From assembly GCA_965178125.1 (NCBI GenBank), contig OZ237744.1:1-64000 (forward strand): a stretch of 64,000 nt of DNA, written 5' to 3'. Under the pieces are notes generated by a model that had not been told where the DNA came from, did not search any database, and was given only the letters and a program-made list of their open reading frames with translations. The position numbers were made by a program, and so were the translations under genes. The DNA comes from Bilabrum cf. latius. Lineage: Eukaryota. Of this stretch, positions 4,410-64,000 are shown one piece after another (the stretch's first letter is position 1; the number at the start of each line of letters is the position of its first letter).

Positions 4410-7400
4410 ATGCCGAATCGCTTCAGGAAGGGCGATAATCGTAATCGTAGGTCCAGTGGACCAGGTGGTGGCAGCAATGCTAGAGGCCAGTACGATCAAT
4501 CCGGTGAACAGTACCAACGGCGACACAGACACCGCGTAGTTGGGATTGATCGACAACTGCCTGGATCTAGAGAGTCGCAAGGTCCCTATACTGGTGTTCA
4601 AAGCTCAAATGCTGCTTATCGCGCCGGTGGCCACAATCGATAGCGCATGCAAGGGGCAACCAGCCGGTTCCTTTACACTCCCCAAGGATAGGTTATGTCA
4701 GCTGTTGATACACGAGGTGATTCCAGGGCTTCTGGCTTCGGGCGCTCTCCGGACCGTTCCACTTCAGGCTACAGAAGCAGTCACCGAGTCGATGCCCCGA
4801 TCGAGACTACTGAATCCAGTTGGCAGGAGCGCTAGGTTTTTGGTAACGGCAATTCTAGCATTATACCAACTGCATCTGGGCTACTACCGACTCCAACACA
4901 GGCAACGTTACAGCGGAAAGGTGTTGCTTCGCATCTCGCGGCTCGGTTGGTCGTGTAGTCACGGCCTCCGCCGCCTCCCCGAGTGCTTGTGGACTCCAGG
5001 AGCGTTGCTGCTGGGCATCATAGAGGAAATATACCTGCTTCACATCTTCCTCCGCCGCCACCTGGTGCAAGTGCTGGTTCTGGCTTTAGGCAGCATCCGG
5101 GGAAACCTGCCGGGCAGCGCTCCAGAGCGTCTGCATCGAGAGGTTTGCTAGTCGAGTTGGGGGGCCGTATGCCATCACTAGCAGATACACATCATCCTGA
5201 GGCCGCAAGAAATGGTACTACTCATCCCGGCAGCACGCGCCATGGGGCTCCAGGTGGGAGCGAGGTTCGTCCGCCTGGCCCGCCAGGGTTCCTAGGCGCT
5301 GCTGCGAGGACTAGAACTGGACCAGTTCGGCCCACGGGGGAATACTTAGCTCGCGGGATGCAGCATGCAAAATAGCCGCAGAGATCAAGCGGCCGATTCG
5401 GCTGGATTCCGAGTCCCGAAGCTGGAAACTAGACTTGGGCAGCGCAGTATCGAAGCCACGTGCCAAGACCGCCCCCTCCTCCCCAAGTGCACGGCGGCTC
5501 TCGCAAGGTGCGACACCAGGGGCAGTCTCTAGATCTTGGTAATCGCCTCGCACGCTAGCATGGCAGCAAACTTCACGTTTCGATTCCAGCTGCGGCTAGT
5601 AGATCAGGGACGTCCTTGCTTGGGCGCCCGACTATGTCTAGGTCACGCTAGTCCTAGTCGCGGGATGGCGCAGAAGACATCGGAGTTAGTCCAACCGGGG
5701 AGGAAGTCAACGATGCATCAGAAGACTGGGGAGAGGTTAGGAAACAGATGCTGAGGAGAAGAGCCGCTTTATTTGCTCGCTAGCGAGCTCAACCTGTACC
5801 TTAGCATCACGGCTTGGCCGGTACCGGCTAGCAGGGCCAAGCCAGTGCTCCACGCAGCTCTCGATGGGGGCCAAGCGTGCGCGTCGACGCAGAAAAAAAG
5901 GATAAAGTTGGTGCAGCGCGGCGTTTGACAGCTTCAGGGATAAAGCCAGCCCGATTCCAGCTGATTGCACTCTCCCGCCGATTAGACCAGGGGGCACCTT
6001 CGCGCCCTGAGACTAGCATATCTGAAATTTTGCCTCCCAGCGTCGAGCCTAGCAAAGGGGAACACGAAGCTGTGTATACTTCCCCCCTGCAGTAGCTGGC
6101 ATTGGCATGCAGACCAAACCATGATGATAAGGTTGCATCGCCTGCAGAGGTGCCAGATGTGCCGGAGCCAGGCTAGCTAGCTGCGGCTTGGCTCGACTTT
6201 GACTAGCATGCAGTAGCTGAGCACGATAGCGCTGGGTGGGTAGGGTTGTGGCCAATTCCGTCAAGATCCGCTGTAAATGACGCTATGGCGCGACTACGGG
6301 AGCGGGAGCAGTTGCTGTCGCAAAGCATACAGCTCCAAGAGGAGTCCATCCTTGCTTCTCAGAAAAGCATCGAGAAGTCCAAAGATGGACTTGTTGAAGC
6401 CTTGAATGACGTGGTACCGTCGGTAGGCAGCTTGGCGCAACGACCACAGGCTGGGATGGATGACTTATGGCAAGCAGTGTAGGCAGTCACGCGCGAGCTA
6501 TCATTCCAGACCGACAATATCCATGATGAGTACGACACAAAGGTCGCCTCTCACGATGCTTCAGGTGGCCCAAAAGCTACGACAACCAACGTAGGTCCGA
6601 CTTGCAACACCCAGCGGACTCTCTTGCTATCTCGGCTCCGACATTCAAGTGGACACAAAGGCAAAGATACGCCGCTCCGATGCACTGGCAGAACTCCAAT
6701 GCTGGCACGGCTGCATAGTCTGTACCTCTTGGGAGCAAGTCTGGACTAGTCTGGATCCGGCAGCAGCCATGTCGAAGAGACACCGTCCGCTTGGCGTTTT
6801 GCATCCCCACGGGCACGTGCTGATCGATGCAGACTAGCTGCGGAGTGGGTCTCGGGCAGCGGTGCTGCCAGGCTCCAGACGATGCACCAGGGACCCGTGG
6901 GGCTGCTGCGACTAGCTGAGCAGCTAGATTTGAAAGCAAGTACCAGCGAAAGCTTGCATGGCCATGACGACTTGGTGTCTCGTTGGGTAGCAAGATCTAG
7001 CACCATGCAAAGCGCCAGGTATGTCTGCGACAGTCCTGTCCATTAGGCAATAGCAGGGCTTGGAGTTTAGAGTCATTGCGGTGATCTTCCTGGGCTAGCA
7101 GCGGCGAGGTAGTTTCGGTCTGTTGTTGGACTAGCGCCCGCCATTTTGCTCAACATGGGTGCGACCGCCTTGTCGTCGAATCTGGCCCTTGCGAGGACAT
7201 CCTCTTCTCTAACGACGCCCTCAAGACTACGTGCACGCCAGAGATTGCAGGGCTCACGTAGATTTCTTCGTCGCTGCGCACAGATGATAAGGAGTTGTAG
7301 CGAGGAATTATCTGTTGCTGCTGATACTGCTGCCTCGGTCTAGCAGGATCCATGGTGCGATTATTGGGAGGATACTGCTTGGGTTCACGCGGACGAAAAT

Positions 7401-8960
7401 TCCATAGTTCGCCAGCAGGCTTTGCGATGTATTGACGGAGTCGCACAACCTGCCGCTGGCAATTTCGTGGAGCCTTCCATCGGTTTCGAGGACCCATCAC
7501 AAGTTCGTGCTTGTCGATCCGTTGGTCCAGCACGGCATCAGCTTCGTACAGAAAGTGCGAGCACTGTCACCACGTAGCTTTTGCGAAGGCAGTAGAGCCT
7601 CCAGAGTGCTCGAAACTCAATTCTAGCTGGAGGATTGCAGATCATCATGTCTAGTGAGCAGGCGCTACTTGAGTACCGCACAAGACTTGTACACTCTCGC
7701 GGCTGGGCGGCCGTATCGTCAGAGTTTCCGCCGGAACCGGGCTTTATGCCGTTGTAGCTGAGCGGGCTTAAGGAAGCTGGAGGATACTCGCGAAGTGGTG
7801 TAGATTCTCCGCGTTCACTTCCGCACGGTGTAGTCTTGGCGAATGCACAACCTCGTACCGGTTCATCTCGTCTATAGCGAGCCGTGCAGAATACATGCGA
7901 GTGGAACGATCTTAGCGGTGCATTCGGGCTAAAGCAGCAGAAAACTGATCAGTTGCTTTGCCTGCGCAATGAGATGATGCGTTGGCCCGGATTCTTTCTG
8001 CGCATGCCTCCGCTGGACAACGATATGGAGTGCCCATTGGTCCCGATGCTTCCGGACGGAACTCCGATTTCTGTCCTGGCGTGGTCATCGGGGTGGCACG
8101 TGGACTCATCCAGCAATTCGGGCTCAAGCATAGCAGCCTTGTAGACGGCCTCTTCGGACTTTGTTGTCGCATCGGACTGGCAGGCTAACACTGCTTCCGT
8201 CGGTGTTCAGTCTGCGTGGAAACCCCACGTCACACATGGTGATGCCTAGCATCCTGCCGAGGAGGTTCCGATTCTTGCAGCAGATGCCGTTCATTCTGGC
8301 AGATGGCAGGCGTTCGGAGGGACACCAGGACTGTTCGAGGTCGTATCTCAGCCGACGTATGCCATGAGGATTGGTTGGCACAGCCGGAGTTCTGCTGCTG
8401 TTGTTCCAGCTCAGGCACCACGCGAAGCTCCTTTTTGTCGGCATGCACAGGACCGCACCAATGACCATGAAGCGATCAGCAGCACAAAATGCGAGCCAGC
8501 TTGGAGCTACGCAGAGCAGCTGGTGTTCTTCGAACGTTTTCTACACTACCCGAAAGACTTTCAAAGAATCGCATCATTCTTGCGTCAGAAGTCGGTCAAG
8601 GATTGTGTTGCATTCTACTACCTGGTTAAACATCGCGCCTGTCTGAAACAAGCACTGCGCGCTTACTCCATTGCCTAGAGGAAGCGCGCCGTGCGTTTGA
8701 GTGCATAGATTGCCATGGCTTGTGCCTTCAGGCTGGGATGCACTGGGCAGAGTGGCAGGTTCACGCACAGTATTGCTGTGCAAGACACACAAGCGGATGG
8801 CATGGATGATGTCGGTGTGCCACTTGGTGTTGAGCTGACGTCGTCTGCCTACCCGGCTCAACGACTTGTTTCGCATGGGCCCGGTACGCCTGAGTGGTGG
8901 TGTAGAATGTTTGGCTTCCCTGCAAGTTTGGGCAAGCCGTCAAGCCGGTGGGTCGGTTGA
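4410..8960 (+). CDS. Large low-complexity nuclear protein with an NCoR/SMRT/Snt1-type SANT domain (~1516 aa with TAG=Gln)
   Basis: ORF-track pieces 4305, 4983, 5877, 6246, 7146, 7884, 8364 and 8715 share one frame, and only TAG separates them where read. SANT motif WSYAEQLVFFERFLHYPKDFQRIASFLRQKSVKDCVAFYYLVK. Ends in TGA. Confidence 0.75.
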
Positions 8961-9849: not shown

Positions 9850-10499
9850 ATGGCATCTGTAAATGTACTTGGAATGAAAGTAGTCGGTAACCCAGCCACA
9901 ATGGCTGAGGGATTTTAGTTCGATATCACTTTTGAGTGCAAGTCCAAATTGGACGATGGTGAGGCATTGTCGAGCTTTGCAACATTGAGCCGGAAATCCG
10001 CAAGTCTACGCCTTCTCGTCCAGTTCGTTTAACCTGCAGACCTTGAATGGACGGTTGTATACGTCGGGTCGGCTGACAGTACTGATACTGATCAAGAGCT
10101 CGAGAGCCTTCTTGTAGGTCCTGTGGAAACTGGAATTAGCAAGTTCTCATTGAAAGTGAGTAAAACATTGACATCTCCAAGTAGTCCCAATTTCCTAACC
10201 CTACAATTCAAGCGCTGGTGCATCGTGAAAAACTTGCTTTGGCCCAAGAATCGCAGACGGAACCTCCCGACATGTCGCTGATTCCCAAGAAAGACCTACT
10301 CGGGGTAACTGTTGTTTTGGTAACATGCAGCTACAAAGAGCAAGAATTTATTCGAGTCGGCTACTATGTGTCGAACGAGCTTGCAGAGCCTTTGGCAGAA
10401 GGCGAGCCAGTGCCTGACGATACTAAACCCGCCAGCGTGCTGCGTAATGTCCTCGCCGATAAACCACGGGTCACAAGGTTTCCCATTGACTGGAGTTGA
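9850..10499 (+). CDS. ASF1: Histone chaperone ASF1; introns 9959-10039 and 10156-10256
   Basis: [15 protein letters not shown]...F(TAG)FDITFEC...[12 protein letters not shown]...[28 protein letters not shown]...[11 protein letters not shown]. Ends in TGA. Confidence 0.96.
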
Positions 10500-10560
10500 T
10501 GATGATATTTTTCAGGTGCAATGCTTTCATGCGGCAGACTGCTAGTCGTATTCAGTCAAA

Positions 10561-11961
10561 TCAAAGCGAGTTCAACGCAGCATGCATCGTGCTTGCAGGG
10601 TACTCGCTGCCAGCCTCCAATCCCAGTGTTCTCCTTTCCTGCATCATTTGGGCCTCTTCTATGAGTTTCCAGTACGGCGGTACTATCACATGCGCATCCA
10701 TAGCGTCCACATCGTGCCAGCTGCTGCTGCTGATCTGCAGCGGTCTACTGATGTCGACGACGCGACATGCAGCACTAGCTTGCCGTGCCGCCCTCGCCAG
10801 CGAACTCTGAACACCCTCTAATCGCAGCTATGCGACTCCAACAGGATGATCGCGCGAGAGTGCGACCAGGCGGCCGATGGTCTTCGGCGGGCTCGCAGCG
10901 GCGTCGTGTCCAGCATCACATACTGTGGCCGATCCGCTGGGAAGCTACAAAAAGCCGTCAGAATCCTCTAGACCCACGAGGCTCTCAAAGTTTGTGTTGC
11001 GTGATAAACTACTAGAAGTAGCGAGGCTCTGCCGAAACTCGTTCTCTTGCAGCTGCCCCTGCAGAGCCTCGGTCAACAAGCGCTTGCCTTCGCCAGAAGG
11101 GCTCAGCACGACCGCGAACAGGCGTTTTCTCAGCAACCCCTTGAAATGACTTCTAGCCACCAACTCCTGACCAACGTAACACCCTTTCTCGAATGAAACA
11201 GCACCAGTCTACTCCATATTCCATTCCAGAGGGACCCTATTCGAAACCGTGCCGCCTTCAAATATGCCAAATACAGCGAGAGTTGCTGCAGCACGCCGGC
11301 AGTTTTCTATGGCATCACGCTAAAGCATGTCAGGTATTGATACCGATCGCGGTTGGATCACTCGTCGCCCAATATCTCCTGACAGTGCGCGCGGATCCGT
11401 TCCGTGGAGTACGACTTCAAAATCATCTTCCTAGCTTACCTCGCCTGAGCTATTCAGCGAAAACTATATGAAAAGATCGGACCTTTCGTCTATTTTCACA
11501 CGCTTTCGTAGTCGCATGGACTTAAGAATCCGTACCACGTCGCTGGCAGCACTCTTAGCGCAGTCAAGCCACAGAGTAGGATACTTTGCCTGCTGGCTGT
11601 CAGATGCAACGCTGTCTGATCGCCAGACGACCAAATCTGCTAATGTTCTACCCTTAGAGTTGAGCATTGCACTTGCTTGCAAGCCACCGGGTGGAAGATC
11701 ATGCATGCCAGTGCTGTTGGTTGACAGCCCATTCACAAACTCTATGGCATCAGGGCCCCTGCAATCCAGACGGCCACGCGAGGAAATTCATGTATTTGTT
11801 TTACTAGTGAAGCTATTTCAATCGCCGCGTGCCGCACCGACTCACCGAACCTATACAATACGCCGCTCAGTCGTGATCCACGTCGAATGCAACATCCTTC
11901 CTATTTGTCTCGGTGTTCGGCTGAGTGCCTCCCTGCATTGATGGTGCGCGCGCTGTATCAT
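10561..11961 (-). CDS. IBA57: Mitochondrial Fe-S assembly factor IBA57/Caf17 (YgfZ family); intron 11759-11845
   Basis: RIV(TAG)[27 protein letters not shown] and the family signature [20 protein letters not shown]. Single frame through TAGs, ending in TGA at 10561. Confidence 0.9.
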
Positions 11962-12079
11962 ACCGCGTATGCAACCAAACGTAGCGCTGTTTGACGAGGA
12001 AATGACCATCATTGTTCCGGACCGCGTGCCCGTAATCCGGAGCAGTGCAGGGCCAACACTAGACCGCCCAGTAGAAAGT

Positions 12080-13568
12080 ATGGTTGCAAAATCTTCGAAT
12101 CAACTTATTTCAAGATAGTTGGTGGCCGGTTAGCCTTATGATCCGCGGTGGCTATGCTTGCGAATGACTGCTGGAGCGCAGTCATGGCAGTCAGCAAGCA
12201 TTGCTTCGGTGGTAGTTGAGCGGCTGGTGAGCAATTAACCAATATAATCGTTTCACTGCGACAACTTATGCCTATCCGTAAACCTCAATAGTAACTAGAC
12301 AACCGCAGGTGAATTCATACGACTACGTGCTAGGCGTGGCCACATCCCGAACTCGATCGGCGGGCTTGCAAACAAGTGGCGTTGATTGCATCCGCGCACC
12401 AGTCCATTCATCACCTGATTCAGTGCTCGAACACATCCATCGATTACTATCTGACAAGTGCGGATCGTCGTGCCGCTGCTGCGTGTACTTTGCCGAGTTC
12501 GAGTTGTTTGTCAGGAATTGGGGATCATCGACGTGTACGGCGATACTAAAACGCATTTCGGAGACGAAAAGCAGCTCTGTACAGTGTATTTGCGTGGAGC
12601 TAGATGTGAATAGGGTCTCAACGACCATGCTAAGAGTGATGGAGTCAAACGGGGCTGTTGTGCTCAACACTTCTTGCCACTACTCGGAGCTCGGCGCAGG
12701 TCAGGTTGGACCGCGATTGAGCGAGGCGCATTCTGCTGGAAGCACTTCGAAAGACGTATTTCGTCCGTCGCTGGCTGATTTAGGGACAGCATCCGAGGTA
12801 CTGAAACTGGAGAGGGAATCAGCTGGCGAGCTCTTGGCACCGGCACCTAGAAGCGAGGTGTCGAGCTATGCTGCAATGCTAACATCCGCCGTATCAGACA
12901 AACAAGTTGGCAAGCAGTATTCCTCCCAACACATGATCTCATCTGTTGCACGGTGGGGATAGCCACTGTCGAGCCGAGATGGACTGCAACCCTGTGCACA
13001 CGAGTACCTCATAATTAGGCGAATGGTGGCCTCATAGATGCAAGCGCGTGATTCGAAGGCGGCTTTGAGCTGGCCACCTCGTGCAGGAGGCGTGCATCGG
13101 CTGATTGCCATGGACAAAGCTTGGTGTGCCGCTGCTGGGTCTCGCTCAAAGCTGGCGGCAGCGAAGCGCCGCGATGGCGTGGCTGCAGACCTCACGGGTG
13201 ATCATTTAGTTAGCTCACAGACCGGAACGTAGAATACTGTCGGAATCGAAGACGTGGCCGTGACGAAAGGTCTTGACTCAGTCGAAACAGCTGAATTGCG
13301 CGCCAAGGACGAGCACTAGAGGACTGCCAGATCTGCTGTGGTGCTTCCGCACGAACGCCAGCGACACCTCGCTGAGCGCGTCTCGCACAACCACCCCCAA
13401 ACCAAGACGATGGAAGCAGAAACCCTTTCACTAGGGCGACACATTACGCCGGTAGGGTCCGGTGCGCTGATTTACTTGGAGGATGGGGATGGCGGGGGTG
13501 CCGCAGAGGCTGGGGGTAGCAGTAGCGAATCGGATGAGTCCGACGATGAAGACTTGGATGGCTACTGA
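12080..13568 (+). CDS. ELP5: Elongator complex protein 5-like; intron 12227-12308
   Basis: The C-terminal EH(TAG)RTARSAVVLPHE...GALIYLEDGD...SDDEDLDGY resembles the ELP5/Iki1 tail. Pieces 12309, 13038 and 13338 share one frame. Ends in TGA. Confidence 0.7.
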
Positions 13569-14311
13569 TTCCAGACGGCAGCGCAGTGCGGATTTGGTAT
13601 TGATCTGGATTCCCAACGTCAGAGTGGGAGCGCTGGAATTTCTCGATGGGCTCCGTCGTCGGTGATTGGTGCAGGCTATTCTAGTCTTCTTCTCGAATGT
13701 GGCAATGCATTGCTTGTGATGATGCGCATACGCTCTTTTTGTTGAGAGGAGGGGCAGAGATAGAGTATCTCCGTTGCATCCGGTCCCACATCGGATTGCA
13801 AGATGGTTGCAAGATGGCTCTTTCATGGATTGTGGGCCACGTATGGATCTTGGCACATCATCCAGAGAGCCAACGTCACCGACGCCGGCTACCGGCAGAC
13901 GAGCCTTAGAGGCCTCTTGGAAAGTCTAGACGCTAAAGTGTAATCCTCTAGGCCAGGATGTGCAGTGGCGGACTTGCCATGTTGAACTCCGGAGTATCCG
14001 GAATCCGGAATCAGGAAGCTTGGGTCCGGGTCTGCTGATACTTGATGCTTTTGGATTCTCATGCCGAAATTAACACGAAAATGAACCTAATTCAACTTTA
14101 CATACAGTAATGATCATCATACTACTTAAAGGGCTCATGGATGGGTTCCACTACAAGGCCATCACCACTCTGCTGCACTGTGCAGCCGGAGAGAACCATC
14201 CACACCCGATGCGTGGCAAGCACAGTCATCATCGCACCAGATCCACTGTGACTTCGACGCAAAGAATCGCTGAGGCGGCACGGAACGGCCAAGGATATCC
14301 GCCGACACACA

Positions 14312-17300
14312 TTAGACCTCCGAGATCAAGTACAGGGCAACCCCGGCCAGCACATACTTGGCACGCACCACTGCAGCGCTTTTCGCCTTAACACCCCCGG
14401 TTGATGTGGGCAAATCAACTTCACACCAGATACGCTCCCGCGACCCACTGACGTACACAGGAACTCGAACAGCAGCAGGTGGTACCTGGATTGATGATCG
14501 ATCAGCAAATCCAACCACGAACGCCGGGACAAGAGACAAAGCAGGATCTTGGCCGCTTTGCAAGGTTGCGTTGCAAGCTGCCGAACCAGAAGGCTACAAC
14601 ATATTGACTCCTGCAGCCCGCACACCTTCAATCAAAATGGGACAAGCGATACCCTAGCGCTGAGCCTGTGCCGCGGGGTCGGATGCAAAGACTGAGGCAA
14701 GCTCTAAAGTTGCTATATCACCACCGGTAGCTCTTGCAGTATGTTGGCGAAGCGAGTCTAGGAGGGTAGCAGGGCGCAACAGTTCACGAATACGCACAGC
14801 GAAGTCCCCAGAGAACAGCTTCGCGGCCAGTCCGCCGTCAAGCGCCTGGCGCCATCGTCCAAGCAAAGCGACTCGACGAACTGACAATTCTCGAATATAC
14901 CCGAGCACCGCCCCCCCTGCAGCACGCTCCAACGACATGCCATGGTCCTCTGGATCCCAGAGCTGACTCCACTGGCGAGGGACTCGACCACGAAGGATAA
15001 CGCGTGCCAGCAAACGACCCGATGCAGCCTACTCTCCAGAGGACGCACTTCCCACCGACTGCGTTGACCGCAGGAAAGCGTTGATATCACCGATGTCGTT
15101 TTGCACGCGTCGTACCAACTGGATGCACGTGTTGATTTCTCCAGCAATGAAGGTAGAGAGAGGGTCTGATCCCGATCGCGCCGGAACCGGAGAATCATCA
15201 AGGCGCACACGTACCCCATTCCACTCCACCACGCAAGCTTGAAGCAGGTCAAGATCTTCTTGCCTTAGCTCAGCACCATCCATCGGCTTTGATGCGCCCA
15301 AGAATTCTCGAAGATCTGCCTTCAAGTCATCCACCTGCCCTTGCACCTGCGCCGCTCCCACGTTGTCCGGCAGCCTCAACATCGAAGGTGGGGAATCAAA
15401 CGGAATTGAGAGGAAAATCTCACGGGCCCTTTCGAACGATGCGGTCTCCAGCATTGGAACACCGCGGCACAAAGCCTTCCCACCTCGCAAAAGGCCCGGG
15501 CCAAAACTAGCTTTGATAAATGTGAGCAGTACCTTTTGGTCATACACGTTATCTAGGCGCCCCCCATATGCAACTAGTGATAGAAGCCCGTGCAACTCCT
15601 GCCAAGGAACCCGCTCAACATCTCCACGACAAGCTCGGAGGGCCCTCTTAATGATGTCCTGGCCAGCTCGAAGGTCTGCGATACTAAATTCATACGGTTT
15701 CGTCCAGCCTTGTGGCACGTACTGTTTTCTCTCCTCCACGATTGAATGGATCCAAGCGAGTACAAACATGAGCTGCGCGGACAGCTTGTCGGCACCGTCG
15801 AACTCGGCAGGACCCAAGGTGCTGAGCACTCTTTGCACGCCGTTGGATAGCCCGGGGGATGGCTCGAACGAGACTTTCAGCGATTGCTGCAGAAGTAGCT
15901 TGGGAAGACCAGGGTGCGACTCTGTACTTAGCCATAACCGGAACCTTAAGTGCACATCTCCATCAGAGGCAGCATCCTACCCACTTCCACTTGTAGGCTG
16001 GCTTCGTTTAGAAGTAGATGCCCGCACCATCACATCACGCTCCAGATCTGGCAGCCAATGCGGCACTAAGTGGACGTTCTTCAAGCAGACCCAGTGGCCC
16101 TTTGCTGCAGCAGACTGGATGATTGAGAGCACGTCGTCCTAGGCATCGCCCCCCATCGCGACTTCAACAAACTGGAAGTCGCCTGATGATTCTGCGTATG
16201 CCGCATGTGCATGTTTGCGCAGCTCAGAGGTCGGATCTGCCCCTGAGGAAGTGACCAAGACGATGGGAACCCTTGGATTCGCGTCATTCGCCAGCGTACC
16301 GAAATCACTCAGTGCTACTAACTAGGATCGTTCGGGCCCAGCAATGACTCGCGACAAATACGTTTCCACACTCTAAAGGAGCTTATCAGGTCGCAAAACA
16401 CAAGATACAGCGACTATCTCGAAGGGCTAGAGGTCGCGCGCTGAGCCGGGCATTCCGACTGGGCCATCGAATGGTTTCACTGAGTCACACCAATCCTACC
16501 AATCTGAGGTAGAGAACACTCTGTTCGACTTTGGGCCAAGCGCATTGCACAGAGCCGACCATACAGGCTTGGCAGCATCTGGGACCCACGCTGGAGTCTC
16601 AGCAGGGGAACTCCCACTGCTGGTGGCCATGCCACAAAAAATTCGCCAGAGTGGATCGGGTATTGTAGCCGGGAAGGCAGCTCGAGCAAGAATCAAGGAT
16701 GACATCACTCTATGCTTCGATTTAACCGCCCTGCCAATCTCAGCAATAGTATTTCTGGCCAGCGCAGACAGAAGCTGTTGCAGTCTGCCCGCAGCATCGC
16801 TCCTAGAGGATCCGGTAGATCGAATAGTGCGACTGAAGACGCCCGAAAACCAAGACAAGGAGAACTGGTACGTCGGGTCAAGCGAAGCGAGGGCCTGTAC
16901 AGCGAAATAGAGACGACTTCCAGCTTGTGCGAGGGGGTGGTACTCCATTCTTTGAGCATCCAGCTCATGCTCGGCCTACTTTCCGTCCTACAGTGCAATT
17001 TCGATCGCGCTGGCTTGCTGCTTGGTCTTGGTCAATGAAGCTACCAGTGGATCATTTTCTAGAATATCGTCGCCTGCGGACGCCAAAGTTGTGATCAGTG
17101 TTTGCTCCATCTCTGCAAGTTGGCCGTTTAATCGCTCTTTTGTCTCAAGAAGCTCGGTCTTCTTCGCCTCAAGCTCTGGTACTTCCATGCGAACTGCAGA
17201 GCTCAGAAGCTGACCAGAGAGCCCTGTAGCCGTCACAGTGAAGTCTACGCGTTGCACCATTGATGCTTGCAAGGGGCTGAGCGAGACAGTAGAGTCCCTG

Positions 17301-52200: not shown

Positions 52201-54035
52201 TCAGCATTTGCCGGGTGTTTCATGCCAGCAGGCGGGCGCGCCGTCAGAGGAGCGGCGGCTTGGACCTTCTTAAGGAGCTCACCTACTTGTTCCTCGTTCG
52301 CTGGATCCACCAACATGGGCAGCGAATCGACCAGCTACCAGTACGAATGATACGCGCCGTCTTCAGTTTCTTCTGGTATTCGCTGATGGTTCCACTCGTA
52401 CTTGGCATGGGCGCGCGCGGCCATTGCATTCCTCTACCCGGCCATCGACATCGTGCGGGCCAGGCCAACCAGTTCTGCGAGTCGGAGCTCTCCTGCAAGA
52501 GGCAAGTGTTGCCGCACGACCACGCTCCAGGGGGCCTTTTGCAGCTTTGTCATCGAGCTTAAGCTCTCTCTAGCAGTTGTAGCTACCGATGGACCTCCTG
52601 TGCTCGTTTCTACCCCTCCAGCCTCGTGCTTTGGCACGTCCTCGGGCACGGAACCGTCATGTTGCACGGCGGCGGCCGTCGGATAGAAGCGACCATCTTC
52701 CCTGGGCAGCAGCATACTACATAGCCACGCACTATTTGCTACGAGCAGGCTCTTTCCGAACGTTGCCAAGCCGGCGGATTCTTCCGAGGATGCGGCGCCA
52801 GCGGCAGTAGCGGCGGCAGGATCAGCTGCTGTCTCGTCTCCGTGGTTTCGCGAGACTGCATCATGAGCCGCATCAATAGCCTCGCCAGGAATCCCATCGG
52901 GCAATCCTTTCGAGGCTGCCCTGCGTAAGTTGATGAGCGTGACATGGGGCGAGTACGGCCTGCCTCCCCGTCCAGGTGGCGGTCGTGCCCCCGCACCACC
53001 GAGTGAGCTAGACGCCGGTGTCGCTGCATCAGCACCTTCGACTGGGATGTCATCCGCCTCAAGTACATGCACCCCAGCAGTTCGAAACGCTCTTGTTAAT
53101 CCTTCTCGGAGGTCCAACAGCCACTGAAGAGCGTCTTCTCCACCTGCAGGTCCCCTGGCTGGCTTTGCGTGCATGACTCGAGCTGGTCTGCCGAAAGTAC
53201 CGGGCCCTTGGAGCTCCATTCCCTCATGTTGCAGGACTTTTCTGCGTGCTGCTGCCAGAAGCTGGGGTGCACTTGTCATCACAACCTCTCTCGCTGCCTT
53301 GAGCTGCGCTGGCGTCTCAATCCTGAGCATTGACACCGACACGTGCAAGCGGTAGGGGGGTAGGCAGCTCGAGGCAAGCTTCGGCTCGGTTGCTGAGGCG
53401 GCTGCCTGGGCTGCCTTGCATGCTGCGACGATCGCCTCATCCTGGATACGCAGGCACAGGAAATAGTTCGGCCTGTCCTCCTCCCGAGGCACCATCACTC
53501 CTTCGCCGGCGTGCCTGGCAAGATTGTGGCTTTGGGGCTGGGGTCCTGCCGGGATTGGACCCGATCTGGAGGTCTTCCAGCCCGATTTGCGCCCTTTGTG
53601 CTAGCGGGTTGCCCTATCCTTTCCTGGTTGCCGAGTTGACTTGCTCTTGGAAGCCTTGCCCCCACGAGTGTCAGCGGAATCCGCAGACCTGGCTTCGATA
53701 CTTGCCTTTAGCTCTTCAACGACCTTATCGAGGGTGATTCCAGATCCTGTTGATCCAAATATATCATCTACACGTGATTTTTTGTCCCAAACGACCCTAT
53801 CTAGCAGTTTGACGTACATGATTCGATGCTGAACCAGGTCCTCCCAGGGCACCTTCGCAAATTCCTTTTCCTCAACTCCAGTGAATCGGTCCAGGTAGCC
53901 TATCTTGATCCAAGCTGAATCTACGATACCGTCCCATTTCAATCTGTTCAAAACGTCGTGCGCCGTTCGCATTCGAAGCTTCTTGTCCCCTTCGGGCCCG
54001 GATCCTGTTCTGCTGTTCCCTTTTTGCCCCGGCAT
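46266..54035 (-). CDS. Multidomain 'Swiss-army-knife' RNA repair / end-healing protein (~2590 aa): MJ1316, 2H, P-loop kinase, 2H, HAD, pol-beta nucleotidyltransferase
   Basis: Nine ORF pieces share one frame joined by TAG. Motifs: MRTAHDVLNRLKWD..IGYLDRFTGVEE; RPNYFLCLRI..LHVS..PHVTL; RGVSGSGKS..VCSAD..VDNTN; YGDHLTL..PHVTL; HIFDFDCT..ILTGR..WDD; GSFPLGRAVCDVD. The extreme 3' end is uncertain (possible GTGAG donor near 46295). Confidence 0.85.
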
Positions 54036-54421
54036 CTCGCGAAATAAATCGGAGCAATATGGACGGACAGATGGTAGTATGCAAAGAAGACTGGTTGAAT
54101 GTCTAGCTTTCGCAAATGGTGAATGAAAGCGCTAGCGAGAGATTCTCGAGAATCACCGGAACCAGGGGAAGGCTAAACCGGAACCTCAGGCTATCGCGAT
54201 TCGCGAAACCGAGAACGCATGATGTGGGGTGGCGGTGGTCTGCGCGACGTGTAGGTAGATGCCTGTGGAGTTAATCGCGCACGTGAGTGTGCTACGCAAT
54301 CAATAGTAATAGCAAATCAGCAAGATGCCCCGTCAGTATCAGCGTTGTCAAATTCCTCTCGGCAGGCCTAGTCGATCTCCAGTCCGTCGTCCTGGACTCC
54401 ACACCCCGTGACGCGCCTGGG

Positions 54422-57400
54422 TCACCTCCCTCCGCCGCCCGCTGCGACGGCCCTCTTTTCTCGCTCTATGAGGGCCTTTGGTTTCGGTCCGACAGGGTTG
54501 TCGAACCACCTGGCGATCTCGAACGTTGCCTGCTTCTCGGCCTCGATCTCCTTGGCGACCTGCGCACTTCGAATGCGCCTCTCCTCCATCATCCGGTGGT
54601 ACGCCTCTTGCTCGGGGGTCATCTTGCTGCCGTACTTCATCCTTCTGTAGCCGTCTAGCAGATCTTGAAGAAGGCTTGCTCTCTTTTTGGCACCCTTTTT
54701 CATCTCCTCTTCAAGAGCTTCTCTCTCAGCCTCGCGCCTCTCCACCTCTCTCCTCAGGTGACCGTCGGCCTGCTAGCCGATCTGCTGTCCCATTGAGGAC
54801 GATGGGGACAGTTTAAGCCGCGCAAGCGTGCGCCCAACGATTGCACTCTTGAAGTCCTCCTAATCCCTCTTGGACATGCGCGAGCACATCGCTTGGCGCT
54901 TAGCCCACTTTGCGTCCTGCTTCGCATCTCGTTTGCTGTACAGCTCCTGGTATCGCTTCTTGGCCTGCGCTAGTAGTTCAGCCTCCTCATCTACCTTGCG
55001 CTTGCGCTTGCGAGCCTCTTCAGCTGCCTTGTGCTTGCGGGCTTCCTCTTCCTCCTCGGCTGCCTTGCGTTTGCGCTTGCGGGCCTCCTCTTCATCGTCA
55101 GCTGCCTTGCGCTTGCGGGCTTCCTCCTCATCTTCGGCTGCCTTGCGCTTGCGGGCTTCCTCTTCCTCTTCGGCCGCCTTGCGCTTGCGGGCTTCCTCCT
55201 CATCTTCGGCTGCCTTGCGCTTGCGGGCCTCCTCTTCATCTTCGGCTGCCTTCCGCTTGCGGGCCTCCTCTTCCTCCTCGGCTGCCTTGCGCTTGCGCTT
55301 GCGGGCTTCCTCCTCATCTTCGGCTGCCTTGCGCTTGCGGGCTTCCTCCTCATCTTCGGCTGCCTTGCGCTTGCGGGCTTCCTCCTCATCTTCGGCTGCC
55401 TTGCGCTTGCGGGCTTCCTCCTCATCTTCGGCTGCCTTGCGCTTGCGGGCTTCCTCCTCATCTTCGGCTGCCTTGCGCTTGCGGGCTTCTTCTTCATCGT
55501 CAGCTGCCTTGCGCTTGCGGGCTTCCTCTTCCTCTTCGGCCGCCTTGCGCTTGCGGGCTTCCTCCTCATCTACGGCTGCCTTGCGCTTGCGGGCTTCCTC
55601 TTCCTCTTCGGCCGCCTTGCGCTTGCGGGCTTCCTTCCTATCCTCCTCCCTGATGTCCTTGTTCAACTGCTCTCTTTGCCTTCGTGCTGCTTCGAGGTCT
55701 CCTGCATTTACCCGAAGCAAAATGACAGCATCCCTGGCCTGCCTCTCGTCAAAAGCATCCAACAGCGCCTTCACTGCCTCCATCTTGCGTCCGGCAACCA
55801 AATGTCCATCTCTAGACTTCCAGTAAGCCCTGAGGCTTTTCATCGTCCGTAGTGCCCTGGCTAGCTCGTGCGAGTTGCCAACCCGAACACCAAGCCCTGC
55901 CTGCTGTTGCGCTCCCCGCAACATCAACTGCAACTCTTCGAGTCCGACCTTTTTCACCGCACTACCCGCCAAGTCTGATGAAACCCAGCCTAAGAAGCTT
56001 TCCCAGTGACGACGCCTCTCTTGCATAACAGTGAGTCCTCCATGGATGAGCTTCGCTGCCACGTTTGCGCGGAGCACCTGCTCTTGCCTGGCGACCAACG
56101 CTTCGCACTGTCGAGCAGCGCATAGGAGCCGCTCTCCGGCGAGAAGGCAGTCAGAAATAGACGAACCGTACGAGAGGTCTGCAATAGTATCGATGCATCT
56201 GCGCAGGTGGACAATGTCAAAGTCTGCTCCTCCGCTCGCTTCGCCGCCGTTGTCTTCGCTAGCAACACTCGCGGCTGAACCCCCAACCGCTCCGGCTCGC
56301 GATACGGGATCCTTGTCAGAAACACCATCGACTTCGAGAGTAGATGCACGTCCGATCTGAATTCTCGCATGTTCTACCACATGTCCGATCGCGCGAGACG
56401 ATCGAAGCAGTCGATTCAAAGTTGCTGCAGATATCATCCTAGGTGTGCTATTTGGCAGATTGTTCAGATCGTCCAGATCGTCCGCTCCGGTCCCAAACCC
56501 AAACGCAATCTGCATCAATCCTTCGGCCCTATATAACTTCGCCAACACAAACCTGACGTCCCGTACAGCTGCGTCGAATCCACAAAGGCTTTGGGCTTCG
56601 ACTGGTGATGGAAGCAATGTAATGCTTCTGGCCGCGTCATACACACTGCCGTGCTGGATACTCCTGGATTTCATGAAGAGGCTCTCCATCATCGAAGTCG
56701 GCACTCGCTTCACGCGCCCGGCCTCCTCCAGGCTCAATGCTTGCGATTCTGCGTGTCCGTTCGACTAATCAATGCTTGAAGGCCACACATAAGACTGCTC
56801 CACAGCTTCTTGAACAGAGACACAGAGGCTGCCTGAGCCCCGCTGTGCCTGCACGACGACTGGCTTGGCGTTAGAAGTTCCTGTTCTATCATCGTGATGC
56901 TACAGCTTCGCGTCCTCCTCATCAACCAGCGCACATGCTTCATCCACCAAGCGGCTAGTCCTGCTAACTGCATGCATGGACAACACTGCACCCAGCGCCA
57001 CGCTCAAAGTAGCTACCATGAGGCCCCAGTAGGCAGGGCTCGCTACCATTGCGAATGCAAGGCCCCATGCGAGGCTCATCAGGAGCCCGGCGCCAGTGTA
57101 GGCCACGGTACGGTTATCTTCAACGAGCTCTGCGTGCAATCCGACTCCGACTTGCCTGTATACAGGCAGCAATGCTACAGGAAATAGAAGCTGTCCCTAT
57201 CTCGAAGCATGCAGATCACCCATGAAATCCTTGGCAGCAGCATGAAACGGGTCAGCCTCAAACAAATGTCCTTGGTAGAGGAGCTGCACGCCATGCCCAA
57301 GCAGTACAGCAGCGACCAGCATCCAGCTCGCAGACAACCAGGCCACCAGTGTCAGCAAATCCCCGCTAGCAGCGTACTCACTTGAACCAATGATGACACC

Positions 57401-60400
57401 CGCGACAAAAAAGGTGGCAATCAAGCCACAGAACAATCGGATGACGAACAGGGGCACATCTCCACCGCGCACCAATGAGTATATCGCGATGCACACGATT
57501 GAGGCCACAAAAACGTACCCAGCAAGCAGACCCACCGTAACAGAAATGCTCTCAAACACCACATTTGCGGCCACAATGAATCCGCACAATATAGCCTAAG
57601 AAGTGATCAGGCCGCCGTACACGAACGTTGCAGAGCTGACCCTGAAGAGGCGCTCTTTCTCCGCCCCTCTACGACGTTGGGCTGCAGCACGGCGCGTGGC
57701 GCGACGATTCGTATGTTTGTCGCTCTATGCGTCTGGCAGGTACTCTGACACCTTGCTAGATGTTCGATGGCCACTATTTTGGGCCCTAAAGCAAGAACAA
57801 AGGCCGCAGAGCACGTCCCGCTCGTAGATCGCCGGCAGGTCCCAGGTGCTGTCGAACCACATGTACAGTGCTACGACCGACAATACGCCTGCTGGATACA
57901 TGAAAGCGACAAACAATAGAGCTAGCAGGATCGTGCTAGCTTGACTGTTCTCATCCACCTCAGCAGCGAATCGCACGATGGCAGGGATGTGACAAGCAGC
58001 ATGCAAGCACAAAGCCAACACGTAGAAAACGATCTGCATGACTTGCATTTGCAGCCTGCCGAAGTACATCGCTGTGCCGACATACCACAAAATACTCTGT
58101 AGCAACATGCCAGCACCATACCAAACCCATACCTGATCATCATCGTCGAGGCCGAGCCCAGCCACAACAGCAAAAGATGCGAGAAGCGCTGGCAGCACGA
58201 CAGCGCAGAGAAAAGTGTTTATCACCTCGGCCAGCAGGTTCATGCAAGCGCCTACCTGAGGCTCTGCGCGATGGTCTTCATGGGAATTACCCGAGGATCG
58301 GTCTACGGCAGCCTAAAGCTCGCCCAGTTCCGGGGGCTCTACTTCAGGTGTTGCGCTGTCTGCTGCCTGCACCTCAGCAGTCGAGGCACTTTGGTGTGAG
58401 TCGGTCCGGCGAGCTAAAAATCCAGGCTTCGAAACTTTTTTTAATGAGCTTGACTGATGCAGTGCCCCACTGTTGGAACGACCACCGCTCATGCCCTCTT
58501 CCAACGTATCTTCGGTTGACATGGACGCAGCAGGTCTCCTGGTTTTTTTCCAGCAGCATGCTACCAGACAACTGTTGGAGCCGCAGAGAATGTAGTCCGT
58601 TTGATTCAGCCGTTCCATTGCAACTGCTATGATAACGTATGCTCCGGGCAAGAAGTACAGTGCCGCTGACAGGATGTAGGACCGCGTTGCAAGGAACATG
58701 CAGAACCCGATGATCGCGCTGCCTGCAGCAAAAGCTGCCCCGCAGTAAATCGTATGCATCGAAGTACCCCTACCCATGTCATGCTCCACCTGGTGGTGGA
58801 ACAGGAAAAACAAAAACGCAAAGGCAACGATCGCCAGGGCGCACAGGCCGAATACCCACTGCGGGTGTCTGCGATTGATCAGCAAGACTTGGTCCTTGGG
58901 CACCACGTCAAGGTCTGCCTGCAGGATGCTTAGCACTACAATGGCAAGTGTAAATACACAAGTCAGCGCAGCAAGCAAGAATATCGGAGATGAAACGAAT
59001 TCGCAACAGGTGGACCCCACCATGCCGGCCCGCCTCGCTTGCACTGTTTGCACTTCCGACACGATCGACATCTCACGCGTCGCGCCCAGCAGATCCTCTC
59101 TATTCGGCGGTGCTTCAGCAGATGGCGAACTAGCGCTTGACCTCGCCTTCGCTTCTCGGATCCACGCTGCAACAGAGGCTGGTTCGCTGGGGCCTTTGCC
59201 CCCTGCCAGGCCATCATCGCTGTCGCTGTCGCTGTCGCTGTCGCTCTCAGCATGCTCAGAGAGTGGTTTTCCTGACCCAGATCCATGAAGATCTGATGCT
59301 GTGGATGCTTGCATCAACCTTAGCACGCTCAGCCGTGCGAGGTAGACCCCAAATGCGGCGTACGTCGCTGCCACGCCCAGCAGCCACAGTCGAGTGCCTG
59401 CAGACAGGAGGAGGAATCGGCTCGCGGTCATGGCAGCAATAACCATACCTGTGTCCTGAAATAGACCACCGCGGTACCCTAGTCCGGTCACGCAGTCCAA
59501 CAGGAGCACAACGAGAGCAATGACCCAGCCGAGGCCCCTCTCGTCGCCCCCTTCGCCGTCAAGCTGCGACACGGTTACCGCCAAAGCAAGGAGGACAACA
59601 ACCGAGCCCAGATACATCCAAACAGCCCACCACCATTTGCTTGCCCCTGCGGCCCTTGCAGCCTTTAGGTCAAGCCAGCTCTCCTTCGGTCTGGCTGGCT
59701 GCACCAGTAGGTACGGTTGCAGGATGTTTTCTAGCGGTACATCAGCTGGAGACTTGCTTTGCCCCGCCTCTAAATCCTGCGAATGCCGGGGAGAATCGCC
59801 AGCACCGGCACCACTTGCTGGAGGCGGCTTTAGTGCCGCTGCACGACCAGAATCTCCTTGTTCCTCGGCTGTTGCAAGGGGCTCATCGGACTGCGGCTTC
59901 GCCTCCACACTTCCAAGGACGCCTTTCTGCATGAGGTCCACGCTGTAGTGATGCTCCGATGTGGACCAAAGGAATACTGCAGCAGTGGAAAGCAGCGCGT
60001 TCACTCCCAGAAAGACCCAGGCCGTGTTGAGAAATGAGAAGACGTACGCAGGTTCATCCTCGAGCACGCCAGTACCAGGTGCCGTAGCAGATAGGTTTGC
60101 AGCGATCGAGACGTCTGGCTGCGACTATGTAAGATTTCCCTTAATTACGATCGAAAGCTCCAACGTAACGACTAATGCAATGGCAATAGCCACGAACAGG
60201 CAGGGCTGCGAGCAAGTGGTCGCAAGGCTGCGCCACCCGCTAGAGCACCAGCTTCGAAAAGCAGCAGCAACTAGGAAAAATGCAGATCCCAGGGTGATCA
60301 ATCCGATTCCAAGTAGAGATGGGTCCACATGCCTGATGAGAAGGGCGCCCCTGCGATTGAAGATGTGGAAGGTATTTCGGTTGCGACCACGGCTTGCGAT

Positions 60401-60793
60401 GTGCGCAGGCAGAAGAAGGGCCTGGTGAGCCTACTAGTAGTACTTGGGCGTAACCGATCTCAACATGTTCAGTTCTTTTCACTTCTAGAGTCTGTTAAGC
60501 ATTGTATGATAAGGATCAGACAGGATACTGGCAATCTCCTCTCACCACACTATAAGTAAAATGAAAGCTATCGCCTGGACAGCGAACAGTCCTAAAGTCG
60601 CCCAAATAAGTTGCTAGCACGACGCAACTATACCTGAAGCAGCAAAGTGTTGCTACCAAAAGGTACCACTGGACTTATACAGCACCAGCAGCGAAAAACA
60701 GAAGAACAGCGTGTATGGAATTCCGATGGAATACCACAGGGAGAGAAATTCCTGCCGCTGGTCGCTGTCGAACGATGATTCAAGCGTTTGCAT
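54422..60793 (-). CDS. Large multipass membrane protein, DEK1/TML-calpain membrane-domain-like, with a charged repeat tail (~2058 aa); intron 60351-60545
   Basis: Pieces 60125, 58313, 57725, 57197, 56900, 54860 and 54422 share one frame joined by TAG. Many hydrophobic helices; motifs RSWCSSGWR, YPAGVLSVVALYMWFDSTWDL and LLPVY..LAWGLAFAMVASPAYWG..AVSR. Confidence 0.75.
54990..55635 (-). repeat. 36-bp coding tandem repeat (~16-17 copies) encoding ARKRKAAEDEEE
   Basis: Plus-strand unit gccttgcgcttgcgggcttcctcctcatcttcggct, with occasional 6-bp (RK) expansions. Confidence 0.95.
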
Positions 60794-61209: not shown

Positions 61210-64000
61210 TCAGGTGGATGTGCCCATACCGATGGCTGCCGCCTACGCTTTCCTCTCGGCCTCTGAGCCCTCCTCCACGGGCAGTGCGCCAGAGTACGTG
61301 CGGAGGGAAGGATCGCCACCACTGGCAGGGGCCACCTTGCCCTCGCCCTTGGCATCACCCAGCTCCGACAGCGAGATTCCACCGCGGGCACCGGGGGGCA
61401 GCCGACGGCCGCTGCCGGCCGTCTTCAGCCGCCTTCCAGCCCTGGAGGGCTACGGGCCGTGCATGGAACTCATCGCAGCGGCGGCGGCCCGCTCCGACGT
61501 CATCGCCGCTGCCGCCGCCCCGCTAGAACCTGCTGCCCCCGCAGCGCCCTGTCCCTGCAGCGGCACCGCCTGTCCGCCATACCCGTACCCATAGGCATCC
61601 CCTCTCACCTTCTGTGTATCCATGGTGCCCATTTTGCGCATGGAGGCGCCTCGACGGAGCAAACGCTGCGCTACATTGCGTGCCCGCACGGCCTCGCTGT
61701 GCTGGTACTCCTTGACACCCTCCTCGGTTACGGTCTGCCCCAGCATCGTGCCCTTGATGGCTTGCATTGTGCCAGCCACTACCCCTGTGTCGTCGTGCCC
61801 GGCGCCGGCAGTAACGGCGTCGAGGGTACCCGGCGGGGGACTTCCATGGAGCGGGTTGTCGATGTGGATGGAGCGGGCACTGGCCGCATCTGCACCACCT
61901 TGCTGGCCCATTGGGTTCGCCTGCAGCGGGGTGCCACCGGCCATGGGACTGCCGCCCATTTGCGCAGGCTTGGTTTTCGCCAGCATGGGCGCCCTGCCGC
62001 GTCCTCCTGGGCTCTGCATCGACCCGTCTGCGGACATCGCGCTGGCCCCGCGGCCGTGCCCTGCGGGCATGAGCTGTCGTCTCGACTACCCGTGGTGGCC
62101 TCCCTCACCGCCCGGAAGCTGGATGTGGCGCCGCGAGGCCGCAATCTCGAGGTTCCGCATGGAGGCGAACTGCGCCATCATCATCTGTCTGGTGCGCTGT
62201 GCGTGCTTGCGCATCTTCGAGTGGGGGTCGTGGTGGGTCGTGCAGCAGTTCTGCAGGACGCAGCCCACGATGACAAGGGCCACAAGCGATCCGGTCACGA
62301 TCAGCGCGATCAGGCCGGTCCGCGTGCCGAACAGCCAGTCAGATAGTTCTCCCAAGAAGCTGGTCGTCGGGAACGTGCTCGTAACTAAATCTTCTCTTGA
62401 TGCAGCGAGCTGCACGCAGCCGGGCCGCTGGGCATACACTGCGGCCCAGTAGGAGCCAGTCTGCGACCGCTCCGTCACGAGCAAAGAGGCCTAGCCGTCA
62501 GCAGACGCCTGAATGGCTGCAAAATCTGCGACCTGTCTTGGCAGCACCGTCGCCACCAGGAGGGCCGGCACGGCGCGCAGATCGTTCGGATCCACCGCCG
62601 CACCACCGCCGCCACCCACGCCTGTGCCTGGAAGGCCGATCACGACGGCATCATCGCCGTCGTCGGCGACACCAACACCCTGCCCGTTGTCGATGAACGC
62701 GGGTGCATCGGCACACATCATGTCAGAAGCGTTCGTGGACACGTTCACATCCAGCGGGTGTCCCACCTTTAGCCTGAGTGCCCTTCCGTTCTGCAGGGGC
62801 TGCTGCACCTTGACCAGCACTAGGTCGCCCTCGTTCATGTACTGCTTCTGGTCGCAGATCGAGCACAGGAAGTCGAGCGACTGTGCAGCGTCCACCAGTC
62901 GGCTGAAGTCCTGGAACCGCGGGGAGGAGCACAGCGCGTCATCGCTGCCCCAGCCGGGCAAGCACTGGCACTGCAGTGATCCACTAGCGTTCACCAGAGT
63001 GCCTGACCCGCCGCACCTACGAGCGGTGCAGAAGTCGATAGCGGGAGACCGCAGCAGCGGACTCCCAACCGCCGCGCCCGTTTCGGCCGCCTCACCCTCA
63101 TCCCCATCCACCACCACAGCGGCACTCGCGTTCGCCGCCGCCTCCTGAAGATCACACAACCGGTCCACGCTCTCCAGATCTGTGCCGGTGAAGTCGACAG
63201 AGCTGGCTTGCACCCGCCGCGTCCCGGCCTCCTGACCCTCTGCATCCTCTCGTGCCGCGAGTCGCTGCGCCTGCGTGCGCGCGGCTGAAGCAAGGTCAAA
63301 GCTCTCATCGGCGATTGCCATGAGCGACAGGTCCACGGCGGCGTCCGCCTTTGCGTCCCTGGCGTTGTGCACGCCGATCACGAGGAACTAGGCCGTGGGG
63401 TCTTCGCGCGACACGAGGAGCGTCTGCCTGTGCTGGCCCACCGGGGCAATGGCTGAGCTCGTCGGGGTGCCAAGGATGTCCCACCCGACCCCGCTAGCTC
63501 GCGAAGCGGCTGTTGCGTTGGGATCAATTGCCTGGCCGCCAGAGCCACCGCTGTCTAGAACAGCCCGCTGCAGCTTGCCGTAAAGTCCGTTGGCTAGCAG
63601 AGCCTGTGCTCTCGCTGCGTCCTCCGTCACATTCGTGGAGGCAAACGACACCACCGCCTCGGTCTCGCCCTCCAGCGCCCGGCGATACCCCGCATAGTCG
63701 TACATGGCCAAGGCACCGCTAAGCCGGGCGAGGGGGCGGTTCAGGCGGGATTGCTCGAATGAGGCCACAACCAGAGGCCTCGCCTGATGCGAGCCAGCCG
63801 ACCTCGCCAACGCCGAAGCGCGGATCATGTCCAGCCTGACTTGCTTCGTGGACACGCCCAGACGGTGGATGAAGTATCGCCACTCGCCGGGTACGATGGG
63901 TCCCGCGAACGCCACATCGCCGCTCTGCAGTGGCGGCGCCTCTGTCTCGCACCTGGCTCCCTCGAACCCGAACGCGCACTCGCATTGCTGCCTACACACG
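61210..64000 (-). CDS. Type I membrane protein with EGF-like domains (5' part outside the window)
   Basis: CECAFGFEGARC and CQCLPGWGSDDALC, then transmembrane segment GLIALIVTGSLVALVIVGCVL. Pieces 63388, 62491, 62086 and 61450 share one frame joined by TAG. Ends in TGA at 61210. Confidence 0.8.

Follow-up and report, generated by a model that had tools for sequence, protein, structure and literature searches.

Open frames, homologue columns and transcript contigs point to UAG as a glutamine codon at a chromosome end of Bilabrum cf. latius

When nearly every gene on a stretch of nuclear DNA is interrupted by in-frame TAG triplets, are these genes dead, or has UAG ceased to mean stop? The question is raised by the 64,000 nucleotides (nt) that open contig OZ237744.1 of Bilabrum cf. 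latius (assembly GCA_965178125.1), the whole of which we refer to as the window. A first-pass annotation of its sequence had proposed that UAG is reassigned to glutamine (Gln, Q) in this organism, pointing to TAGs in the genes for the cytoplasmic dynein-2 heavy chain, the U5 snRNP GTPase Snu114, the histone chaperone ASF1, and a presumed ELP5. This interpretation is supported by the open frames of the window, by homologue alignments, by transcript contigs, and by the positions at which the genes end.

Under the standard code, the longest frame of the window is 707 amino acids (aa). With TAG read as sense, frames of 4618, 2628, 2102, 2018, 1552, and 1046 codons appear, while two control decodings, TAA as Gln and TGA as tryptophan (W), give longest frames of 707 and 746 aa, respectively. 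Thirteen long frames, together 17,842 codons, contain 165 TAG triplets in frame and neither a TAA nor a TGA. The counts of TAG/TAA/TGA in the same frames are 195/58/268 in the +1 register and 174/63/480 in the +2 register, giving off-frame totals of 121 TAA and 748 TGA. TAG is equally common in and out of frame, TAA and TGA are excluded in frame, and the pattern of open frames is far beyond chance. All TAG coordinates of the first-pass annotation that were checked proved correct, namely, 9916 in ASF1, 29222 in Snu114, 13317 in the presumed ELP5, and 22796, 22346, 23801, 23708, and 21974 in dynein-2, the last five corresponding to frame residues 1791, 1941, 1456, 1487, and 2065. The same holds for the unbroken 13.8-kb dynein exon that it described: the coding exon is open from 14312 to 28157, and a transcript contig is collinear with it there. 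We regard it as almost certain that UAG is a sense codon in this organism.

A sense codon has to survive in the message. To look at this, public sequencing runs X1, X6, X7, and X8 were compared with positions 12001 to 32000 of the window. No run is recorded as RNA; the run kinds were guessed, X6 was flagged as "probably DNA," and depth figures as well as the uncovered bins of X7 and X8 were left unused. X1 is DNA-like, with the 20 kb in one unspliced contig identical to the window, of which it may itself be the source. The contigs of X6, X7, and X8, which come from two studies, skip 12226-12307 (82 nt, presumed ELP5 gene) and 29018-29106 (89 nt, Snu114), and those of X6 alone also skip 28158-28264 (107 nt, dynein-2). 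Read on the strand of its own gene, each of the three skipped introns begins with GT and ends with AG, and the contigs begin and end at gene borders. Because they skip GT..AG introns that are not skipped in X1 and stop at gene borders, we take X6 to X8 as transcript assemblies.

Record 3 of X6 (14,193 nt) represents the whole dynein message, 14084-28157 joined to 28265-28383, with no other letters and no gaps. It is collinear with all 60 dynein TAGs, and editing or splicing-out is therefore excluded for dynein-2. The first-pass annotation had suggested that RNA be inspected for edited or removed TAGs; in the dynein-2 message, 60 of 60 are kept unedited. The only differences between runs and window are a T>C change at 15751, where the codon begins with A and is not TAG, and a 5-nt gap at 19533, each seen in one low-depth contig. 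The contig with the gap, from X7, is 849 nt long with a depth of 3.8 of 6.8, and the gap, which lies within the coding exon of dynein, would shift the frame; either faulty assembly or a rare variant may account for it.

These comparisons bear on the view that the TAGs are untranslated, whether because the genes are pseudogenes, because assembly or sequencing is in error, or because the triplets are removed by editing or splicing. Neither the run comparison nor the frames yielded any support for it. Apart from 15751 and 19533, the contigs of all four runs show the same letters as the window across 20 kb, the dynein message is collinear with its 60 TAGs, the frames run for thousands of codons free of TAA and TGA, and the proteins are conserved to their C termini. 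We consider an untranslated TAG to be extremely improbable, and the first-pass remark that these genes were unlikely all to be pseudogenes can be put more strongly, in that the pseudogene reading is refuted for this window. As a separate observation, near-complete identical copies of the stretch occur in runs filed under four coded organism labels (A to D) in four studies, which could reflect filing of one organism under several names or its growth alongside other cultures.

UAA and UGA are kept as terminators. The 15 listed frames end in TGA (13 frames) or TAA (2 frames), and homologues of dynein and of CFAP58 have their C termini just where the TAA of the former and the TGA of the latter fall. 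The frames use CAA and CAG in a ratio of 224:488; about 76 in-frame TAA codons would be expected if TAA shared the meaning of TAG, and none is seen. Code 6, in which both UAA and UAG mean Gln, is found in many ciliates, in hexamitid diplomonads, and in some ulvophyte green algae. It shares UAG as Gln with the code considered here, but TAA occurs in frame 0 times in 17,842 codons, against 165 TAGs. Reading TAA as Gln opens no long frames, and a TAA ends dynein at the homologue C terminus. Code 6 was rejected on these grounds.

Conceivably, UAG could carry a dual meaning, being sense within genes and yet also the terminator of some of them. The gene ends with independent support are that of dynein (TAA) and those of Snu114, CFAP58, and ASF1 (TGA); TAG stands at 0 of the 4, a number too small to establish that UAG is never a terminator. 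On the other side, no TAG is required to end any of the 15 frames, and the 3' untranslated regions (UTRs) on the transcript contigs, 68 nt for Snu114, 228 nt for dynein-2, and 518 nt for the presumed ELP5, are unlike the very short ones of position-dependent termination. In Condylostoma-type codes, 3' UTRs are very short and "sense stops" are depleted near gene ends. In CFAP58, three of the six TAGs lie within the last 100 codons, and one, 7 codons before the stop, occupies the Q of a "KPQP...IEL" tail and does not stop the reading of the conserved C-terminal residues that follow. Context dependence of the Condylostoma type was accordingly rejected for the three or four genes examined, since neither the 3' UTR lengths nor the TAG near the CFAP58 stop shows its features. 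A dual meaning of any kind appears improbable to us.

Which residue UAG specifies was assessed from the columns opposite TAG in alignments of homologues, most extensively for dynein-2. The query frame, with X at each TAG, was aligned with 18 dynein-2 orthologues from the 120 listed matches, redundant frog sequences having been thinned, and TAG columns in which fewer than half of the homologues are present were dropped (4 of 60 in dynein and 1 of 6 in CFAP58). The first-pass annotation had placed several dynein TAGs at Gln positions of homologues, and at the five sites it cited (22796, 22346, 23801, 23708, and 21974), Q is indeed present in 15, 17, 18, 14, and 11 of the 18 homologues, respectively. 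Over all dynein TAG columns, Q makes up 210 of 985 residues (21.3%, versus a background of 4.7%), a 4.5-fold enrichment, with every other residue enriched at most 1.6-fold. Averaged over columns, the fraction of Q is 0.21 for TAG, 0.165 for CAG, and 0.18 for CAA, and is 0.087 or less for each of 11 other codons. Likewise, Q is found in at least half of the homologues in 10 of 56 TAG columns, 12 of 98 CAG columns, and 12 of 74 CAA columns, compared with 4 of 142 for GAG and 0 of 104 for AAG. Where 85% or more of the homologues agree, the residue opposite TAG is Q in five columns and E in one; the sense codons of the query encode the conserved residue in 528 of 628 columns of this kind, which is about TAG's rate for Q. 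As judged from these alignments, the TAG columns of dynein resemble CAG and CAA columns and are unlike those of any other codon examined.

A pooled test combined 69 TAG columns (56 from dynein, 8 from Snu114, and 5 from CFAP58), giving one vote to each column and drawing 5000 bootstraps over columns. Q was the best residue in 4988 of the 5000, S came next at -10.6, and R, E, A, and K followed at -16 to -18; L was outside the eight best residues and was also far behind in dynein alone. The absence of Gln enrichment at TAG columns, which the first-pass annotation had named as an outcome that would speak against its proposal, is thus the opposite of what we observe.

The smaller genes give a more mixed picture. 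For Snu114, 41 homologues of the 120 matches listed were aligned, and the TAG columns comprise K in 40/41, K in 41/41, R in 39/41, D in 36/41, Q in 21/41, one mixed K/L/R/Q column, and two unconserved N-terminal columns. The Q-majority column is that of the TAG at 29222, for which the first-pass annotation had given a Gln in homologues. The CFAP58 alignment contained 40 sequences, 39 of them being those of at least 800 aa among the first 55 matches, plus P0248, a 243-aa protein found by an exhaustive protein search with CFAP58. Its TAG columns are Q-top (8/31), R-top (16/33), variable, without homologue residues, E-top (27/39), and Q-top (12/37). An earlier comparison with the Chlamydomonas chain, in which one CFAP58 TAG lay opposite K, is superseded by this alignment. 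P0248 is 86% identical to residues 379 to 621 of the window CFAP58 and has Q exactly opposite the TAG at residue 441. In ASF1, the TAG is at 9916 as the first-pass annotation had it, but its correspondence to Gln was not confirmed: the three yeast ASF1 chains shown have E at this position, and the proposed "FQFEITFEC" was not encountered. CAF17/IBA57 was compared with a single human chain, and its TAGs faced W, L, L, and F where the alignment is poor; these were not counted.

Several of these columns weigh against Gln as the meaning of UAG. Four of the 8 Snu114 TAGs fall on near-invariant K, K, R, and D and one on a Q-majority column, and Snu114 alone slightly favors K, with Q at -2.2. CFAP58 has a TAG on one R-top and one E-top column, the ASF1 TAG is opposite E in yeast, and dynein itself has TAGs on an E column (18/18) and on L-, R-, and A-dominated columns. 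The Snu114 of the window has diverged to an unusual degree: its best match is 39% identical, its branch is very long, and its sense codons agree with the conserved residue at only 209 of the 323 columns of high conservation. Even given this divergence, Q at none of the four conserved TAG columns is low. Relaxed constraint or spliceosome co-evolution may account for this oddity, or it may be a hint that UAG is not always Gln.

The same columns raise the possibility that UAG is sense but not purely Gln, either encoding another polar residue such as Lys or Glu or, if no dedicated suppressor tRNA exists, being read ambiguously by near-cognate tRNAs. The invariant K (twice), R, and D columns and the fit to K in Snu114, the R-top and E-top columns in CFAP58, and the invariant E column in dynein all count for this possibility, as does the insertion of Gln, Tyr, and Lys by near-cognate UAG readthrough in yeast and in mammals. 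Against it, K stands at background opposite the dynein TAGs (54/985, an enrichment of 0.99). Dynein columns of AAG and AAA contain 32 to 35% K and those of GAG and GAA 36 to 40% E, versus 5.5% K and 11% E in TAG columns. In the pooled bootstrap, K was best once and E once in 5000, and the close relative P0248 has Q at the one comparable site. We consider an impure or different assignment unlikely and judge with good confidence that UAG means Gln. With equal confidence, the code as a whole would be one in which UAG alone has passed to Gln and UAA and UGA remain stops, which is the pattern of translation table 15.

How such a code might operate can be proposed from established knowledge. Most likely, UAG would be decoded by a tRNA-Gln with anticodon CUA, which would pair with UAG but not with UAA, and which would probably have arisen as a copy of tRNA-Gln(CUG) by a single anticodon mutation. 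A single eRF1 would have lost recognition of UAG and kept that of UAA and UGA, and new TAG codons would have spread mainly through synonymous CAG-to-TAG change. A requirement for the CUA anticodon where UAG is sense and UAA is still a stop is stated in the available text of PMC5304391. A tRNA gene search of the window and an Rfam family search of the window both returned none, and eRF1 is not encoded there.

The code itself has precedents. As far as the accessible portion of PMC11687900 goes, reassignment of UAG alone to Gln is known from Iotanema spirale, Protocruzia tuzeti, Hartmannula sinica, and Trochilia petrani. The statement of the first-pass annotation that the reassignment is rare and reported for Iotanema spirale and some ciliates agrees with this source and with PMC5304391, to the same extent. 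The closest likeness is with Iotanema spirale, in which UAG is Gln and UAA and UGA are stops, as inferred from in-frame UAG at Gln positions of conserved genes; a tRNA-Gln(CUA) and an altered eRF1 are also predicted there, and Iotanema has a T32G change in the GTS motif (PMC5304391, text available in part). The eRF1 positions equivalent to human T32 and L69 are taken up in that report both for Iotanema and for the rhizarian exLh. The primary stop of Iotanema is UAA, according to the same part of that report, whereas most frames here (13 of 15) end in UGA. Iotanema is moreover an anaerobic metamonad represented by a transcriptome, while the present case involves a GC-rich chromosome end with TTAGGG repeats, a CAF17/IBA57-like gene, and a dynein-2 that groups with Cafeteria. 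Hartmannula sinica, Trochilia petrani, and Protocruzia tuzeti have the same reassignment, with UAG used like a synonymous Gln codon along gene bodies and, in the accessible part of PMC11687900, no sign of a dual meaning. These three are ciliates, in contrast to the multi-gene chromosome end with a GC content of 52 to 67% and a CCCTAA telomere that is seen here.

UAG and UAA have also been uncoupled in codes with other residues, in that UAG means Leu in the rhizarian exLh and in TARA phyllopharyngean ciliates and Ser in Scotinosphaera, with UAA kept as a stop (PMC11687900 and PMC5304391, in the portions available). In the window the residue differs, with S the runner-up at -10.6 and L outside the first eight. 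Taken together, nuclear codes that separate UAG from UAA are few, comprising one fornicate and three ciliates with UAG as Gln and a handful with Leu or Ser, on the evidence of the accessible parts of the same two reports. The code is therefore already known as the table 15 pattern, and it is the lineage that is probably new. No report of UAG-to-Gln in a stramenopile or another GC-rich flagellate was found in the literature searched, outside whose scope lie most subscription journals and supplements, so that an earlier report could exist.

To which lineage, then, does the organism belong? A FastTree phylogeny of dynein-2 with the 18 homologues, a taxon set determined by what the search returned, places the query with proteins P0005 and P0029 (Shimodaira-Hasegawa [SH]-like support, 0.974), and this group sits with Cafeteria roenbergensis (SH-like support, 1.000). 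The best named Snu114 matches are oomycetes, and the Snu114 tree shows the query on a very long branch next to a single unnamed protein. These trees offer a lead, not a result, toward a stramenopile position related to bicosoecids. Ciliate telomere repeats differ from those found here, being of the TTGGGG type. A ciliate is unlikely because of the TTAGGG telomere repeat and the multi-gene, GC-rich chromosome end, and a fornicate is unlikely because of the CAF17/IBA57-like gene and the tree position; judging from the sequence, the organism would thus be neither. Dynein-2 and CFAP58 are ciliary proteins, and from these known family roles the organism can be expected to build a flagellum.

The relatives also indicate how far the change may extend. 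P0248 is encoded on metagenome contigs of 12.9 and 13.1 kb, and its last residue directly precedes one for which the window has Q (CAG). A 243-aa piece of a gene of about 900 aa on a 13-kb contig is what a standard-code gene call would be expected to give if the relative has in-frame TAGs, and its organism probably shares the UAG change. By comparison, standard-code gene calling gave P0005 and P0029 as full-length dynein-2 proteins, and in-frame TAGs are absent from the GC-rich metagenome loci that come closest (L001, L002, and L016; 44 to 45% identity in the dynein motor). From this, the change would seem restricted to the small lineage of the query, and an independent origin of the code is plausible. 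For the fuller proposition, that this is a further, independent, and fairly recent origin of UAG-only-to-Gln outside ciliates and metamonads, in a flagellate that is GC-rich, apparently aerobic, and related to bicosoecid stramenopiles, we see the case as evenly balanced.

The metagenome scan with the dynein motor otherwise returned as most similar loci AT-rich ones with many in-frame TAA and TAG, which are ciliate-like, and no close relative. In the dynein-2 of one locus (L015), TAA and TAG pair mostly with Y or F in the query, recalling a code in which both triplets (UAR) mean Tyr. Two others (L019 and L047) have in-frame TGA opposite R and TAA or TAG opposite Q or opposite a window TAG.

Another lineage with this code would be an independent replicate of a rare change, bearing on why UAG and UAA are usually coupled and on how one release factor loses a single stop. 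If an independent, recent origin is true, the existing DNA and RNA data would make this organism a tractable system for an eRF1 that drops UAG yet keeps UAA. There is also a practical side, in that standard-code annotation of the genome would shatter nearly every gene, and re-annotation with table 15 is needed before comparative work. The proteins of the window have no high-identity match in a collection of 5.8 billion proteins, the best being 35% for dynein-2 and 39% for Snu114, and the CFAP58 of the relative is present in that collection only as the 243-aa piece.

The window is the end of a eukaryotic chromosome, and the TTAGGG telomere noted in the first-pass annotation is borne out by the perfect repeats with which it opens (Table 1). 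From 4.3 kb to the window end it is gene-dense on both strands. GC content is 52 to 56% up to about 36 kb and 56 to 67% thereafter, and the GC content of third codon positions rises from 0.50 to 0.61 in frames before about 36000 to 0.61 to 0.79 in those after. The GC-richer genes have a lower share of TAG among Gln codons, as illustrated by CAG/CAA/TAG counts of 62/6/6 in CFAP58 versus 112/81/60 in dynein.

Table 1. Repeats, genes, and long open frames of the window (CDS, coding sequence)
Feature	Position	Strand	Codons	In-frame TAG	Stop	Remarks
Telomere	1-985					164 perfect CCCTAA units (TTAGGG on other strand), from repeat analysis
Subtelomeric 339-bp unit	1527-2369					2.5 copies, 99% alike
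Interstitial CCCTAA block	2505-2637					22 units
Subtelomeric 53-bp unit	2641-3177					10 copies
Long frame	4302-8960	+	1552	29	TGA	Frame span; Pfam family none
ASF1 histone chaperone	9850-10499	+		1 (9916-9918)	TGA	
CAF17/IBA57-like (GCV_T fold)	10561-11787	-	408	6	TGA	
Spliced transcript (presumed ELP5)	12071-14086	+	468	6 (incl. 13317)	TGA (13566-13568)	CDS from 12080
Cytoplasmic dynein-2 (IFT dynein) heavy chain	14084-28383	-	4648	60	TAA (14312-14314)	CDS from 28365
Snu114/EFTUD2 (U5 snRNP GTPase)	28525-31851	+	1034	8	TGA (31781-31783)	CDS from 28590
TPR-repeat frame	32603-34000	-	465	5	TGA	
EF-hand frame	35331-36368	+	345	5	TGA	
CFAP58 (ciliary coiled-coil protein)	36536-39676	-	1046	6	TGA	
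Long frame	39756-46064	-	2102	12	TGA	Family none
RNA-repair-type multi-domain protein	46266-54152	-	2628	15	TGA	
Long frame, predicted membrane protein	54422-60478	-	2018	11	TGA	Family none
Long frame	61210-63999	-	929	5	TGA	Runs past window end

Among the genes listed, the coding pieces of ASF1 (about 9850-9960, 10036-10150, and 10254-10499) match positions 1 to 36, 37 to 72, and 75 to 153 of the Pfam profile PF04729; they were placed by this profile, and their borders are not transcript derived. The label ELP5 given to the gene at 12071 in the first-pass annotation could not be upheld, as Pfam gives no family for it even at an E value of ≤1. The RNA-repair-type protein combines the domains MJ1316, AKAP7 2'5' RNA ligase-like, AAA_33 (kinase-like), and HAD_SAK_1. 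Its single homologue in a length-matched search, from Salpingoeca rosetta, covers 9% of the query and is useless for TAG columns. Within the predicted membrane protein, positions 55017-55635 hold 17 copies of a 36-nt unit that encode a repeated acidic-basic dodecapeptide. Finally, the convergent transcripts of the gene at 12071 and of dynein-2 meet, with X6 contigs ending at 14086 and 14084, respectively, which may reflect overlapping 3' ends or a mere assembly break.

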